NCBI GenBank assembly: GCA_051532055.1
Contig: JAOPTX010000072.1
Location: 1 to 25,396 of the forward strand
Source of the DNA: Fibrobacterales bacterium
GTDB lineage: Bacteria; Fibrobacterota; Fibrobacteria; Fibrobacterales; JAOPTW01
Reading direction: 5' to 3'
DNA: 25,396 nucleotides
The notes beneath the pieces are model-generated. The model ran no database searches. It saw only the letters and a program-made list of their open reading frames with translations, and was not told the origin of the DNA. Position numbers and translations under genes: made by a program. The stretch's first letter is position 1, and each line of letters begins with the position of its first letter. This document shows, piece after piece, positions 19,631-25,396 of the stretch.

Positions 19631-19789
19631 TGGGAATGGGGTAGACTGGGGTAGTTTAAGACGGCTTTGCTACGCATTATTTTCTGAGGATAGTAAAAAA
19701 AGGAATAGGGTAAGGGCACTCTAATTCTATTTTGCGTCTTATGAACGGTTCTGCATAATACTCATTATACTGTATTATACCTTCTTTAC

Positions 19790-19846
19790 TGCCAACTTCT
19801 CGGTGTATCGTGGGGAAGTTGGCATTGCGTACTTACATAGTTGGGC
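19790..19846 (+). repeat. Right part of an attC-like core (left arm lost)
   Basis: Hairpin TGCCAACTTC/GAAGTTGGCA followed by TTGCGTACTTACATA-GTTGGGC, matching the TGCGTAC...GTT right arm of the other cores. Confidence 0.65.
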
Positions 19847-21604
19847 CCAATAGGTGATAGGAAATATTGTTTTAGGTTTGAACTCCTTGTGCTTACTATG
19901 CGGATGCAACAACAGGGCTTTAATTATTACTATATTTTAATAAATGAGGATTTTACGAGGTTATTATGAAAGTCTATTTACTTGCTTTTTGTTTTTGCTA
20001 TTTGGGTTGTGTTTTTGATAAAACAGAAATTGCTGAAATTTCTAACAGTTCGTCCGCTACTATAGTTGATAGTTTCTCTTCAAAAGTTATAGTGTCATCA
20101 CAAACATCGGTTGTTAGCTCTTCTGATATAGTCATTCAAGTTCAGTCTTCCCATAATGCTATAGGTGTTAGCTCAGAAATTCAAAGACATGTAAGTTCTT
20201 CACATAAAAGATCCAGAGTTCAAACGTCCGCTTCATCAACTTCGGACAATAGTCAAAGTTACACATCGAATGATTTTAATAAACAAATCAATAAGCATTT
20301 TCCATATGTTATACGTAATATGTCATCGCGTTATTGTGAGCCGTATACATTTAAAATTGCAGAGGATTCATTAATACAGATTATTGGGGGAAAGTTCCAA
20401 AGAGGGTTAGATAGATTAAGTGATAGTTTATATCGATTCTATTCAATTGAATTTCCTGAACACTATTTCGATGCAGTAATTCACGATAGTACCATAAACT
20501 ATATCAATTATTTTGAGGAGAGTTTAATAATGGATTTTAGCAGGAGTTATCCAGGGTGTGAAAACGAATCATATAAATTAAGGCTAGGTATGATTGATGA
20601 TTCGCTAAGTTATCCCCAATCAACTACTGAAGACCCTCTTAAGAACAAAAATAGTTACATAATGCTAGAGCCATGGGGGCAAAGTATACGGTGTAGTGGT
20701 ATAGAGGAACGGGTTAATAAAATGCCTTCCGGCAAGTCTAGAATTCAAATGGTTAATGATTCAACAATACTCATTGTTGATAGTGAAAACTATGCCGATA
20801 GTATACAACGTGTAATCATTAACAATACTTATGAGTATATGGATTATTATTCTGGTTTCATGAAAATTCGCTTTAAATATATTCCAGAAGCAGGCTGTGA
20901 GCCTGCTGAATTTGAATCAATAATTGCAGTAGGCTCAAAGCTTGGAGAAGGTGAGCGTCCTTACGATATTTCAGCATATTTTGAACCCACAGCACAACTC
21001 ACCATCGATAGCTGTAGTGAAATAGCTATAGATTCTTTAGAAGATGGTTGTAATGTTTGCACTTGTTCTAAAATAGGAATTAAGGTTTGTACCAATTTTG
21101 ATTGTGCCACAGAAAATGTCGTTTGCACAACAATAGGAAACCCTCAATGTGGTTATGATGATTCAAATGAATTTTATAAAGTACGGAAAATATTGGTGGA
21201 TAGGTTTGATGGGAATTATGAATTCGATTTTGATGAAGGCGACTTTAGCGGGGGATATAAGAGTATTGGTGTTAATAGTGTGACATCATCAAACCGAATA
21301 GAAAAGTTATCAACCGGTGATTTTATCGCCTTGAAAAACTTAATTATGCATTCTGATGTTACCTTAGAGTGGGAATATGGGTGTGATCCACACAAATCAA
21401 GATGTTACGACCAACACATATCTAAAGTTAGTCTTGTCTATAACCATGATACAATTCAAGGGTATTATCCAGATGGTACAATTAAAGGCTTATTGTTTTC
21501 AGAAGAGTTAACAGGCTTTTTGGATGAATTAATAAATTTCGAAATGAATTACTGATTATGCTAAAGTGTTCGGGGAGTTTCGATAATCACCTACTAGGCC
21601 CAAC
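19840..21604 (+). mobile_element. Cassette A, bounded by 19-bp inverted arms
   Basis: GTTGGGCCCAATAGGTGAT (19840-19858) is complementary to ATCACCTACTAGGCCCAAC (21586-21604) at 17/19. Confidence 0.75.
19966..21555 (+). CDS. Ser-rich lipoprotein with a pacifastin/VWC-like Cys motif
   Basis: YLGC lipobox, GAGG RBS; C-x9-CNVCTC-x7-CT-x3-C (DGCNVCTC). Confidence 0.75.
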   Translation: MKVYLLAFCFCYLGCVFDKTEIAEISNSSSATIVDSFSSKVIVSSQTSVVSSSDIVIQVQSSHNAIGVSSEIQRHVSSSHKRSRVQTSASSTSDNSQSYTSNDFNKQINKHFPYVIRNMSSRYCEPYTFKIAEDSLIQIIGGKFQRGLDRLSDSLYRFYSIEFPEHYFDAVIHDSTINYINYFEESLIMDFSRSYPGCENESYKLRLGMIDDSLSYPQSTTEDPLKNKNSYIMLEPWGQSIRCSGIEERVNKMPSGKSRIQMVNDSTILIVDSENYADSIQRVIINNTYEYMDYYSGFMKIRFKYIPEAGCEPAEFESIIAVGSKLGEGERPYDISAYFEPTAQLTIDSCSEIAIDSLEDGCNVCTCSKIGIKVCTNFDCATENVVCTTIGNPQCGYDDSNEFYKVRKILVDRFDGNYEFDFDEGDFSGGYKSIGVNSVTSSNRIEKLSTGDFIALKNLIMHSDVTLEWEYGCDPHKSRCYDQHISKVSLVYNHDTIQGYYPDGTIKGLLFSEELTGFLDELINFEMNY

Positions 21605-21676
21605 AGCCGAAGCACGCAAGCTTTTTTCTATGCACTGAAGTGCTAAAAGCCTGCGTACGTTCGCCAAGCGTTGCTG
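21598..21676 (+). repeat. attC-like hairpin core, copy 2
   Basis: GCCCAAC...GTTGCTG, 79 bp; stem CGAA-GCACGCAAGCTTTT / AAAAGCCTGCGTACGTTCG with compensatory changes relative to copies 1 and 3. Confidence 0.8.
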
Positions 21677-21895
21677 GACATAGGAATGGGCAGGGATATT
21701 TGATGGGGGAGACTTAATGAGTTATGCAAGGACGAAAATATTTTTATTTGGTTCGACTGCCCGTCCATGGGCAGGCTATTTTTTTATATTCTGTGTAAAT
21801 ACAAGTTATTTGCTTAATATTTCAGTTCGATATGATTCTGAGAACATTTCAAACATAAAATTCGTCTAATATCAGACACTACATTTTAGGACAAT

Positions 21896-22270
21896 ATGAA
21901 ATATTTATTCATTATTATTTGTTTGACATTCTTTATGGCTTGTGCAACCTCAATATCTACAGAACAAATTGAGATGAAGGAATTTTCATTTCCATCTGAG
22001 AATTATGATCTAACAGTATCAAAGAGAGAGTTATTTAATATTAAAATAAGGCTATGCAGCGGGTGTTTAAATGACTGGACACTAGTTGCATATGATTCTT
22101 CTAAAGTTGAACATCTCAATACAACAAATCAGGATTTTAGCTGTCAGAATTGCGATGGTGGCTCATATAATAAAACATTTAGTTTTACTGCAAAAGATAG
22201 CGGATTTACGGAAATTCGTTTTGTTGAACTAAACTTAGACACATTGTTAATTAATTTATCAGTAGAATAA
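21896..22270 (+). CDS. Lipoprotein with a chagasin/I42 protease-inhibitor-like domain
   Basis: FMAC lipobox; LTVSKRELFNIKI...W...GG...FSFTAKDSG.TEIRF matches the chagasin-family pattern. Confidence 0.65.
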   Translation: MKYLFIIICLTFFMACATSISTEQIEMKEFSFPSENYDLTVSKRELFNIKIRLCSGCLNDWTLVAYDSSKVEHLNTTNQDFSCQNCDGGSYNKTFSFTAKDSGFTEIRFVELNLDTLLINLSVE

Positions 22271-22312
22271 AAACCCACTCACCAAATGAGCAATTAGGGA
22301 CATGGTTTATGT

Positions 22313-22387
22313 TTATAACAGTCGTTGGAACGGAAACCGTTAAATGTTATATTCTGTATGAAAGTTCCGCTCAACTAAAAGTTATAA
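22313..22387 (+). repeat. Canonical-geometry integron attC site
   Basis: R'' TTATAAC, 5 bp, L'' TTGGAACG ... L' CGCTCAA, 6 bp, R' GTTATAA; followed directly by the RBS and ATG of the next gene. Confidence 0.85.
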
Positions 22388-22400
22388 TTAAGGGAAAGAG

Positions 22401-22682
22401 ATGAATAAAATTATTATTGCATATTTTTTCGTGTTAATTGGTTGCTCTTCTACTGGGGTTGTATCTATGGGACAAGGGAGTTATCTAGTCTCTAAGAAAA
22501 GTCCCCAAGTAGGTTTTGGTCCGTCTGTAACATTAAAGGCGGATGTTTATAAAGAAGCCAATGAGTTCTGTATGAAGCAAAATAAGGAAGTTGAAACAGT
22601 AAACTTTGAAAGTACTGATTCAGGATTTGCTCAATCTCCAACGGCATCTTTAGAATTTCGGTGCTCTGAAAAAAATGATTAA
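22401..22682 (+). CDS. Small lipoprotein of unknown function
   Basis: LIGC lipobox; two further Cys; AAGGG RBS; starts 13 bp after the attC R' box. Confidence 0.85.
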   Translation: MNKIIIAYFFVLIGCSSTGVVSMGQGSYLVSKKSPQVGFGPSVTLKADVYKEANEFCMKQNKEVETVNFESTDSGFAQSPTASLEFRCSEKND

Positions 22683-22802
22683 TGTTTCTAGAAAGACTTA
22701 GTTAAAAGACTCTATCCGCCGTCCATGGCTACGTTCATTAAAACAAAAATATTTTCTTTTCTCCCAAATAAGCATCATGCTAGGTATGCCCATTACTACA
22801 TC

Positions 22803-22879
22803 CACCAACAAGAAAAGCACGCAACGATTTTTTCTAGTATGAAGAAGAAAATCGCTGCGTACATTTTCAAACGTTGTAG
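22803..22879 (+). repeat. attC-like hairpin core, copy 3
   Basis: CACCAAC...GTTGTAG, 77 bp; stem GAAAA-GCACGCAACGATTTT / AAAATCGCTGCGTACATTTTC; close to copy 1. Confidence 0.8.
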
Positions 22880-22927
22880 CAAATTACTATGGGTCAAATT
22901 ATATTGGCAAATTATTTAAACGGGTAT

Positions 22928-22954
22928 AAAAAAAGCCCCACGTCCTGTGGGGCT
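22928..22954 (-). terminator. Rho-independent terminator of the ATPase gene (also a GTCC-loop hairpin)
   Basis: Stem AGCCCCAC/GTGGGGCT followed by T7 on the minus strand, about 20 bp after the stop codon. Confidence 0.75.
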
Positions 22955-22975
22955 GATTTAAAAAATAAATATTAA

Positions 22976-25075
22976 TTATGATTCTTCGAAATTAAGGTCA
23001 TCTGAACCGTCTCGTTGGAAGTACATGTTTTCGGCCATTTCTTCTAGTTGAAAAACTCTTCTACCAGATATTCGGCTGTCTCTATCGACTAACCCTCTAT
23101 CGGATAATATGCGGCCACGTTTTCCAATAAGTTGGTATGAACAGTCTAATTCAGCTGCTATATCCTTGGCAAACATTTCCTTGCGTTCATCGTGTAGTGT
23201 TTTAAGAATACCTAGTTCTGTACCTGGGAGTAAATTTTCATCATCAATAGATTGGATTAAATTCTCATATTTTCGTGATAAATTGACTACTCTGCAAGTG
23301 CCTGTTTTACATTCAGGACATAGCATGTCATAAGCTTGCAACATAGGTAGTAACTCATTTGCGTGTTTCATTTTGCAGTTATCACATACAATTTCTTGGT
23401 TAATCTTTATATATGATAAAACAATAGGAGTATAATCGAATATACGTTCAACAAAATATAAGCGTTGCTCTCTGGTCTCAGTTGGTCTACCAAAATTGAG
23501 TGTTTCTTGTTGACATAGCCCATAATTTAGTGAATAAACAGAAACTTCCCGACCATCACGATCTTTCATTTCGTAATATTTTGTAATGAAGAAGTTTAAT
23601 TCTAAAGTAGACATTATAGAAGAATAATCGCTTCCTATATGGAAATGACTTGTAGGGGTTCTTCCTGGTATGTCTTTCGTTACTTTTGAATCTTTATATG
23701 TTCTTAATTCCTTTGAGCGTTTTACTATAGCTTCAAGTAATTCTTTTAAACTATATATTGAGGATCTTTCTTCAAAAGTTTCGTGGAGAAATTTATTGAG
23801 TTTGAAATAATATGATATTTTCTCGTCAAAATACCTCCGAGATGCAGCTTGTACAGTCTTAATAGAAATTTTGCTGTCATAGATAATACTTGATTCATAA
23901 CAATAATAGAGAATATAACCCAAGATTCTAGGGTTACCGATACAAGCATAAAAGAGGACTCTCCAAAAATTTTCATTTGATGAGTCGAAATACTCACTAA
24001 CATCCTGGTCACAGAAATAAGCAATACGAGATTCAACCAATCGTTTTGTAAAATCAACTGCACGACTTTCCATGTTTGTTAAATCGTTTCTACCATACGC
24101 TCTATATATATCAAGATAAACCTCATCAATTTTAGACATATCAATTTGACCTGAATATAGTCTGCCAGGATAAATTGCAATTTTAAATTTTATGAAATCA
24201 TCAGACCAATTATTTAGTGGAGCAATAATGGTATCAACTACTTGCTCCATATCATTTTTAGGTAATTCAGAGAAGTCGTCTATAAATATGTATAAATGAC
24301 GAAGGTTAAGTTGGTCTAAGATTTCTCGTATACGTAATATTAAATTTCTAACGTTAAATATTTTAATATAGACTTGTGAATAATTTTGACTTTTCTTCTT
24401 TTCAAGCTCCTGTATTAATTCTGCAATAAATTTTGCTTGTAGTGAAGGATTATTAGAGGCGGTAGCTGTTACTTCGGTACTTGTTTTTTCAGTCTCTTTT
24501 GATGTTTCCTCTTCTGACCGTTGTGCTTGAATACTCCCTGTTGCATCAAGGTATTTATCTTCTTTGAGTTCTTCTAAAAACTCATCTAATTGTTCAAAAA
24601 GTTCTGCGGCTGACCCTGTAAATGCTTCTTTAAATTGATTCCAAAGGCTTGAAGATATTCGTGCGCTAATTTGTGATTTGATTTCATTGAGCATTTCAAT
24701 CATAAAACTTTTAAATACACTTAATCGTTGAATTGCATCAGTAGAGAGAGCATTACTAAGCTCTTCAGGTAGGCTTCCTACCATTTCAGAAGTAGATGAT
24801 TCATAGAGTGTTTTAATATCAATATATGCCCAAGTTTTATTCTTGTCAGAATTTAATTCATGCTGAACTCTTTGAAATATTGTGGACTTACCAGTGCCTT
24901 TTCTGCCAATTAAAAAAGTTGTATTGGGTTTCAAAAGTGTATTCATTGTGTGATTTTCAGGCAAGGGGTCAACATATAAGTCGTTGATTATTTTATCACC
25001 TTGATCATTTAGTAGTTCAGATCGATGATAAAGTTTAAGAGTATCAATTGTTTTTAAAAAGTTCTCTTTTTTCAT
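22976..25075 (-). CDS. P-loop ATPase (ORC/CDC6-like or STAND-like) with Zn ribbon and C-terminal winged HTH
   Basis: Walker A GRKGTGKS, Walker B YIFIDD, GNPR motif, CDNC...CPECKTG, MFAKDIAAELDCSYQLIG...GLVDR; ATG at 25075 is the more likely start. Confidence 0.85.
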   Translation of the reverse strand: MKKENFLKTIDTLKLYHRSELLNDQGDKIINDLYVDPLPENHTMNTLLKPNTTFLIGRKGTGKSTIFQRVQHELNSDKNKTWAYIDIKTLYESSTSEMVGSLPEELSNALSTDAIQRLSVFKSFMIEMLNEIKSQISARISSSLWNQFKEAFTGSAAELFEQLDEFLEELKEDKYLDATGSIQAQRSEEETSKETEKTSTEVTATASNNPSLQAKFIAELIQELEKKKSQNYSQVYIKIFNVRNLILRIREILDQLNLRHLYIFIDDFSELPKNDMEQVVDTIIAPLNNWSDDFIKFKIAIYPGRLYSGQIDMSKIDEVYLDIYRAYGRNDLTNMESRAVDFTKRLVESRIAYFCDQDVSEYFDSSNENFWRVLFYACIGNPRILGYILYYCYESSIIYDSKISIKTVQAASRRYFDEKISYYFKLNKFLHETFEERSSIYSLKELLEAIVKRSKELRTYKDSKVTKDIPGRTPTSHFHIGSDYSSIMSTLELNFFITKYYEMKDRDGREVSVYSLNYGLCQQETLNFGRPTETREQRLYFVERIFDYTPIVLSYIKINQEIVCDNCKMKHANELLPMLQAYDMLCPECKTGTCRVVNLSRKYENLIQSIDDENLLPGTELGILKTLHDERKEMFAKDIAAELDCSYQLIGKRGRILSDRGLVDRDSRISGRRVFQLEEMAENMYFQRDGSDDLNFEES

Positions 25076-25240
25076 GCTTCTGCCCAATCTTAGGTTTGAT
25101 TTACAATTTAGAATTTAATTGATGAATTATTGAATAAATATTTATAAACATATTTTCCGCCCTCCGTCGTCCTATCTACGGTCGGGATTTATACCCGTTA
25201 AAATAATAAGAAGCTGTAGTGATAGACCCATAGTAACTCG

Positions 25241-25380
25241 CTACAACACTCATAGCAGTCAATAATTTGATCATAAGTTCGCTACATTCAGCCGGTCGCT
25301 AAAGCTCCTCGTCTTCATGCAACCCAAGCGAAGCTTGGGAGCTCTCTAATTGTCAAATAACTGCTTACTCTGAGGAACTT
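25241..25380 (+). repeat. Long, degenerate attC-like core after cassette C
   Basis: CTACAAC then CTCA-TAGCAGT...ATTTGA pairing with TCAAAT-AACTGCT...TGAG; inner hairpin CCCAAGC/GCTTGGG; no intact GTT. Confidence 0.5.
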
Positions 25381-25396
25381 CACCCGAAAAGTCAAG

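Follow-up and report, generated by a model that had tools for sequence, protein, structure and literature searches.

Inverted arms bound each of three successive units near one end of a Fibrobacterales contig, and their few mismatches lean to one sense: what are these arms, and on which DNA strand do they pair? The window analysed here is the whole of that contig (25,396 nt; GenBank JAOPTX010000072.1, assembly GCA_051532055.1; C72 below), one of 181 in a 5.17-Mb genome that we label G000; the genome of a congener is labelled G001. Positions 19840-25247 of the window are three integron-type cassettes, A, B and C, separated by attC cores of ~72 nt (CAAC...GTTG) that we call type 2. The original prediction had proposed that the arms are selected to pair as bottom-strand single-stranded DNA (ssDNA) rather than to act as terminal inverted repeats (TIRs) in double-stranded DNA. 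The analysis below supports that proposal: in our judgement the region is very probably the start of a chromosomal integron-type array, and its arm pairs are cassette ends that pair as bottom-strand ssDNA, with wobbles that are one-sided accordingly. Such a one-sided wobble pattern provides a test, from sequence only, of which DNA strand folds.

Cassette arms and the strand of their wobbles

The spacer elements at 21601-21673 and 22806-22876 are ~72 nt long and have the form CAAC-...GCACGCAA...-loop-...TGCGTAC...-GTTG. In all three units the left arm opens with the GTTG of the element upstream and the right arm closes with the CAAC of the element downstream. Cassette A has its left arm, starting with the R' box GTTG, at 19840-19858 and its right arm, ending with the R'' box CAAC, at 21586-21604 (these and all features below are on the + strand unless stated otherwise). 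The arms of cassette B lie at 21670-21692 and 22787-22809, and inside them the two copies of an inner block (16 nt, 94%), at 21734-21749 and 22741-22756, pair with each other. Cassette C has arms at 22873-22895 and 25225-25247 (23 nt, 91%) with inner blocks at 22911-22930 and 25188-25207 (20 nt, 95%). The cores that close cassettes A and B (21601-21673 and 22806-22876) were detected with an nhmmer profile of the type-2 core (E 8.5e-22 for the first) and with R1, a covariance model built on the bottom strand of type-2 cores (89.4 bits on the bottom strand and 74.6 bits, respectively); the first was also placed in core alignments.

A position-by-position comparison of these arms reproduced exactly the tally on which the original prediction was built, in which six of the eight outer-arm mismatches, and one more in the inner block of B, are A·C on the top strand. 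Both mismatches of cassette A are of this type (19848 C·A 21596 and 19850 A·C 21594), as are both of cassette C (22881 A·C 25239 and 22883 A·C 25237) and two of the four in cassette B (21679 C·A 22800 and 21680 A·C 22799). The other two in B are transversions (21674 C·C 22805 and 21684 G·A 22795). Among the inner blocks, the single mismatch in B is A·C on top and the single mismatch in C is A·A, so not of the A·C type. Such a pattern could in principle arise by chance, or by strand-biased mutation with no selection on pairing: the original sample comprised just nine mismatches, and strand-asymmetric deamination exists in bacteria.

A larger set of arms was drawn from both genomes. The nhmmer profile found ~30 type-2 sites across G000, and R1 matched 29 sites in G000 and 12 in G001. 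Each right end before an attC start was matched to its best upstream left end with an equal penalty for all mismatch types, and the strand orientation of every pair was fixed by the attC core, independently of the mismatches. This gave 32 candidates in G000, of which 26 were kept; the other six (C7 twice, C8, C17, C21 and C35) had no attC context and scores of 11-13.5 and were discarded as chance matches. From 16 ends tested in G001 we obtained four cassettes with a score of at least 15. The total is 30 cassettes with both ends; their distinct arm pairs number 29, of which G000 supplies 26 and G001 another 3.

Across the outer arms of these 29 pairs, 42 mismatches are A·C on the top strand and 2 are G·T, with 8 transversions; two pairs read from alignments contribute 2 A·C, 1 G·T and 3 transversions to these totals, leaving 40, 1 and 5 for the remainder. 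The types are thus far from equal, and the A·C excess that the first three cassettes had suggested holds strongly. Most of it traces to one place. At arm position 11, counted from the G of GTTG, 28 of the 29 distinct pairs have A·C on top, which is T·G on the bottom strand: A on the left and C on the right stand exactly there in 22 pairs and one column on, beside a 1-nt bulge, in 6 more. The pair without it is in G001 (L027 9355-11281). Drift does not account for the strongest signal in the arms, which is a single wobble conserved at a set distance from the crossover. With this site left out, the transitions still divide into 14 A·C and 2 G·T (two-sided binomial ~0.004), and these 14 events are spread over 11 cassettes of different arm families. 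Composition does not explain the bias, because the top strand is not rich in A+C: in the 26 G000 cassettes A+C makes up 0.482 of 44,951 bases (G+T 0.518), and the GC skew is positive here. A slightly G+T-rich top strand with positive skew is the opposite of what would yield A and C on top. Together with the 42-to-2 ratio, the site fixed in 28 of 29 arm pairs and three further wobbles that are invariant in 22 cores (see below), this makes chance or mutational bias a most improbable source of the pattern.

The sample of arms and cassettes comes from two species, since searches of public collections and of related genomes gave no more arrays. R1 detected no type-2 attC in 59 other genomes of the order, the congener being the only one of 60 relatives with matches, nor did it match any site in a sample of 150 further genomes of the phylum. 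Among genome contigs, an IUPAC pattern of the type-2 core matched seven stretches, four of them on records of Fibrobacterales metagenome-assembled genomes and three single and chance-like; among metagenome contigs it matched six, none forming an array.

We then compared arms within and between cassettes. Beyond GTTG/CAAC, cognate arms share 15.3 of 18 positions, as against 7.4 (sd 2.3) in 650 non-cognate combinations. Arms thus differ from cassette to cassette yet stay complementary within each, and they are cognate to the cassette, not to the attC lying between them. The split stem beyond the crossover measures 15-33 nt, and up to ~58 nt when inner blocks are included. These observations bear directly on whether the arms could be double-stranded TIRs bound by a transposase, as might be guessed from units of 1-2.4 kb that end in inverted repeats of 19-23 bp. 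However, such arms would not be expected to differ between cassettes and covary; the units stand head to tail via conserved attC cores with their junctions in GTTG; no duplications are seen at the cassette junctions, which are attC cores; and no transposase was found among the cassette cargo proteins. A double-stranded site also offers no reason for wobbles to fall on one side. We consider the TIR explanation extremely unlikely.

The position of the crossover is seen in a 292-nt cassette without an open reading frame (ORF) that occurs, with its attC, in two arrays (C89:8030-8321 and C100:10107-10398; 4 differences). Its neighbours on both sides are unrelated in the two arrays, and the similarity runs from GTTG to GTTG. 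These boundaries place the crossover in the R' box (G|TT), as in integrons, and indicate that both arms and the downstream core travel together with the cassette. The arms of this cassette are ~33 nt long, and it also contains an internal palindrome. Separately, some contig joints (among them 19862 to 21576 and, running back, 22784 to 21666) were considered as excision products; this reading was rejected because the joints have short sides and fall on repeated arms or cores.

Predicted bottom-strand folding of cores and circle junctions

The cores carry the same strand preference. In 22 aligned type-2 cores CAAC is invariant and GTTG is present in 20. RNAalifold predicted a hairpin of 18 pairs on the bottom strand, 6 of them with compensatory changes, and only 10 pairs on the top strand; the consensus energies were -12.3 and -5.1, respectively. 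Three bottom-strand G·U pairs are invariant (columns 8-74, 20-66 and 26-60), and over all pair cells (n=396) the bottom strand has 69 G·U and 2 A·C. Consistent with this, type-2 sites reached R1 scores of 74-97 bits as bottom strands and of 15-26 bits as top strands. The predicted bottom-strand folds have an asymmetric internal loop, single-base bulges and a variable terminal loop; we do not equate these bulges with the G/T extrahelical bases of other attC sites.

To compare the strands, we folded the site that forms when the two ends of a cassette are joined, using DNA parameters. This circle junction was modelled for 16 of the 26 G000 cassettes, the other 10 ending in a long attC variant or at a contig end. 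The predicted energies were -37.2 kcal/mol for bottom strands and -29.8 for top strands, and the bottom strand was lower at 15 of the 16 sites. For the same attC in its array context the predicted values were -23.5 and -19.7 kcal/mol, and for the core alone -16.5 and -12.3. The arms therefore add ~14 kcal/mol, and do so only when the cassette's own ends meet. Per folded junction site (n=16), G·T pairs numbered 4.81 on average for the bottom strand and 0.19 for the top. One site in G001 is naturally flanked by arms of the same family and is predicted to fold into a single continuous hairpin; the bottom strand has an energy of -43.6 kcal/mol (z -7.7), the top strand one of -34.1 (z -4.0).

These results suggest how the wobbles may have come to be one-sided. 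With the crossover in GTTG, a cassette would carry both arms along, and in the excised circle these would come together and extend its attC hairpin at the base by 15-33 bp. If only the bottom strand must fold to recombine, changes that leave a G·T pair there would be tolerated or selected and their mirror images removed; seen from the top strand, each such wobble is an A·C mismatch. The position-11 wobble of the arm, which would lie roughly one recombinase footprint from the cleavage site if tyrosine recombinase sites in general are a guide, and the three wobbles of the core would make the bottom hairpin ~7 kcal/mol more stable than the top, and the fixed wobbles are probably a built-in strand marker, alongside bulged bases. 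The sequences show the anatomy, the position of the crossover, the covariation and the strand bias, along with the predicted energies; that the bottom strand folds in vivo and that an enzyme reads the wobbles is what we infer. Selection extends far outside the canonical attC site, to both cassette ends, which implies that the excised circle, or a fold across the cassette, is a selected state.

The second of these states, in which ssDNA arms pair across 0.3-2.4 kb of cargo, would clamp the two flanking attC hairpins base to base and favour precise excision of that cassette; it is a variant compatible with bottom-strand pairing of the arms. Minimum free energy (MFE) folds of whole cassettes on the bottom strand paired 21 of 25 arm positions in B, 23 of 25 in the 292-nt cassette and 19 of 25 in A, and in these folds the G of R' pairs with the C of the cassette's own R''. 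The top strand gave nearly the same result (18, 19 and 16 of 25), so that the prediction is not strand-specific, and an MFE computed over 0.5-2 kb ignores kinetics, SSB and the length of ssDNA in vivo. We regard this clamp as possible but rather unlikely.

Alternatively, the paired molecule could be RNA, in which case a transcript carrying the sequence of the bottom strand, antisense to the majority of cargo genes, would fold with G·U, a standard RNA pair. An RNA library from the same sample does contain short contigs that match the attC core and stretches of cassettes B and C, but these carry no strand information, and DNA can occur in such libraries. For cassettes A and B, such a transcript would need to run antisense to their genes. 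No Rfam family reached its gathering score in the window or in two other contigs of the genome (C122 and C141), and the element bears every DNA-level mark of attC recombination, including the exchange of cassettes at GTTG. Pairing as RNA is accordingly very unlikely in our view.

Several points weigh against selection of the arms for bottom-strand ssDNA pairing. In the array, the two arms of one attC come from different cassettes and are mostly unpaired, so that long arms would be of use only in the circle or when pairing spans the cargo. The fixed A/C at position 11 could be a conserved protein-contact motif instead of a pairing feature. Both source genomes belong to one genus and some arm families are related, so that the counts are not fully independent. 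All folding energies are predictions. Finally, two public sequencing runs are stored as contigs, whose joints fall in repeats and give no read-level evidence of excision. We nevertheless favour bottom-strand pairing of cassette ends, given the cognate complementarity of the arms, the attC cores with their crossover in GTTG, the one-sided wobbles in arms and cores alike, the greater predicted stability of bottom-strand folds and the lack of a transposase in the cargo.

The type-2 sites share much with classical integron cassettes. Both have R'' (...AAC) and R' (GTT...) boxes, a crossover at G|TT and cassettes that start with the last bases of the previous R'; both form an imperfect hairpin with an internal loop and bulges in which pairing runs beyond the 7-nt R box; and in both the bottom strand is the more stable and the richer in G:T pairs. 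Classical attC sites recombine as bottom-strand hairpins, and their R-box pairing can extend to 9-11 nt, according to the part of the source at our disposal (PMC2727003). [quoted passage not shown] As far as those sections go, the principle of a bottom-strand G:T bias in attC sites is not new, because it is already contained there. A term search of the accessible text of Larouche & Roy 2011 (PMC3053210) found no mention of extended attC stems.

By contrast, the type-2 stem continues for 15-33 nt beyond the crossover (to ~58 nt with inner blocks), unlike the usual 7-11 nt of classical sites, and it has the near-invariant wobble at position 11 (28 of 29 pairs). At type-2 junctions we count 4.8 G·T pairs per site on the bottom strand versus 0.2 on the top, compared with the published 1.24 and 0.39, and the predicted energy gap between the strands is ~7 kcal/mol, compared with 2.1. 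What we describe is a marked variant, with longer split stems, wobbles at fixed positions and a possible integrase without the IntI-specific insertion I2, of a general G:T principle that is already published. The fixed wobble offers a simple handle for mutagenesis and for the design of strand-selective synthetic sites.

A second attC family in the same genome allows a further comparison. Type-1 sites, found with the IntI gene on C108, are ~115 nt long with ...TAAC/GTTA... boxes, as opposed to the ~72-nt core and CAAC/GTTG of type 2. Type-1 cassette arms measure 7-10 nt (6 of 8 cassettes being correctly anchored), or 10 nt by eye on C108, against 15-33 nt for type 2. Like type 2, type-1 sites have the more stable bottom strand, in 12 of 12 full-length sites (predicted -19.3 versus -14.3 kcal/mol). 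The two families lie on separate contigs except on C3, where they are 92 kb apart; mixing of families across contig breaks is possible, because the contigs break at attC repeats.

The recombinase beside the array start

Which enzyme acts on these sites? On another G000 contig, C46, the first type-2 cassette begins 185 nt from a divergent gene for a 364-residue tyrosine recombinase, which we call rec46 (L017:4355-5449). Aligned with IntI, rec46 has a gap of 41 residues exactly at the IntI-specific insertion (I2). It passed the NCBIfam XerA model (230 bits; cut-off 220) and failed the integron integrase model TIGR02249 (184 bits; cut-off 265). Its closest solved relatives are the XerA structures 4a8e and 5hxy, each aligned in one stretch, and the IntI structure 2a3v aligned only in two. 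A homologue of rec46, 56% identical, occupies the same position in G001, with synteny in the genes upstream and unrelated cassettes downstream. The locus thus has the pattern that would be expected of a conserved platform with cassette turnover. In C46 the first cassette after rec46 (L017:5753-7638) has two overlapping ORFs of 319 and 309 residues, the second of which carries a DUF6602 domain.

In the window, an array-start, attI-like site that ends in TTGCGTAC-N7-GTTG occupies 19780-19843 and is homologous to, and aligned with, the array-start site of C46. tblastn searches with rec46 and IntI detected no recombinase gene on C72, either next to the array start or elsewhere. The window array thus has no adjoining I2-bearing tyrosine recombinase of the kind by which a complete integron is recognised, and its head retains the conserved array-start site, a candidate attI. 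A cluster of attC sites without an integron integrase is what is called a CALIN (Cury et al. 2016, PMC4889954). The window resembles one in having three attC sites at 21601-25378 and no integrase in its 25-kb contig, and other type-2 clusters lie on many contigs. However, because its start site is homologous to that of C46, the window array looks like a copy of the platform without its gene, not like a stray CALIN fragment.

The gene next to the type-2 array start, in C46 as in G001, encodes an XerA-like recombinase without I2, unlike that of a classical integron. Archaeal and bacterial Xer enzymes (XerA-XerC/D) resolve dimers at a single duplex site (dif), whereas rec46 stands divergently at the head of a cassette array, as an intI gene does, and has an N-terminal extension of ~100 residues. 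Extensions of ~100-130 residues ahead of the SAM-like domain are seen in both rec46 and the canonical IntI of this genome. We think it close to evenly balanced, with the scale tipped slightly to the negative side, that this XerA-like recombinase beside the array start on C46 and in G001 is the acting enzyme.

Three findings weigh against that assignment. rec46 lacks the I2 insertion, and published work holds the I2 helix to be necessary for, and the innovation behind, recombination of ssDNA attC sites (PMC7790495). Both species also encode a canonical IntI, which in G000 is on C108 (L001:1480-2844, 454 residues), scores 372 bits with TIGR02249 (cut-off 265), has I2 and lies beside type-1 attC sites. 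And both encode an orphan IntI-like protein that bears I2; the copy on C44 (L002:1189-2394, 401 residues) aligns without gaps to the canonical IntI over 302 residues, including the I2 region, and the TIGR02249 scores are below the cut-off (190 bits in G000, 183 in G001). The canonical IntI, or the orphan protein acting in trans, is the alternative to rec46 as the acting enzyme. In the orphan protein, Gln replaces the conserved His before the catalytic Tyr, and no attC was found within 1.5 kb of its gene.

Relatives of rec46 were also sought more widely. A match at E<=1e-30 occurs in 64 of 296 Fibrobacterota genomes, and all but that of G001 are at most 38% identical. At 28 distant homologue loci, of 31 searched, R1 found no match and no such arrays lay within 1.5 kb; a crude scan of the same 28 loci for AAC...GTT hairpins gave no convincing arrays. 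We found no integron-like platform without I2 in the literature that we searched, which did not cover subscription journals or supplements.

If rec46 is the enzyme, the type-2 family may be a second kind of integron, with an XerA-like integrase that lacks I2 and with split stems and fixed G·T wobbles that mark and stabilise the strand to be cut; we put this forward tentatively, at somewhat below an even chance. In classical integrons, strand marking falls largely to bulged bases read by I2. Cassettes run by rec46 would be a natural counter-example to the view that the I2 helix was decisive in the passage from duplex (Xer-type) recombination to the single-strand kind of integrons, and, if this is true, the system would allow that transition to be studied directly.

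Cargo and other sites in the window

The cargo of cassette A is an ORF of 529 residues at 19966-21555 with no solid Pfam match; the N-terminus of its product looks like a lipoprotein signal. Cassette B holds two small ORFs of 124 and 93 residues (21896-22682), the first with a weak, sub-threshold match to chagasin-type inhibitors. In cassette C, a 703-residue P-loop/STAND-like NTPase is encoded on the - strand (22976-25087), with all Pfam matches below their curated cut-offs. The gene runs opposite to the array, a layout typical of self-expressed defence or toxin-antitoxin cassettes.

The attC of cassette C (25244-25378) is a long variant with a large insert in its terminal loop. Long variants also occur in G000 at C45:7744, C89:7858, C89:10753 and C100:6867, and they share a conserved insert of ~85-100 nt with a GC-rich, hairpin-like motif of its own. 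In the window, the R' end of the site is replaced by the end of an IS110-family insertion sequence (IS; 25379-25396), where the contig breaks. An IS of this family sits at the R' end of an attC in five places (the window, C46, C122, C141 and C153) and breaks the assembly each time. Its protein is encoded on C122 and has 434 residues with DEDD_Tnp_IS110 and Transposase_20 domains. This IS resembles the attC-targeting IS1111 group.

A further type-2 core lies at the other end of the contig (154-226; nhmmer E 7.9e-11; R1 76 bits). It has no partner arm downstream, where the best candidate is at chance level, and is apparently where a separate array ends. After it come chromosomal genes of ordinary kinds (BNR, GH67), and in G001 an attC is found at the same coordinates, 154-226, of one of its contigs.

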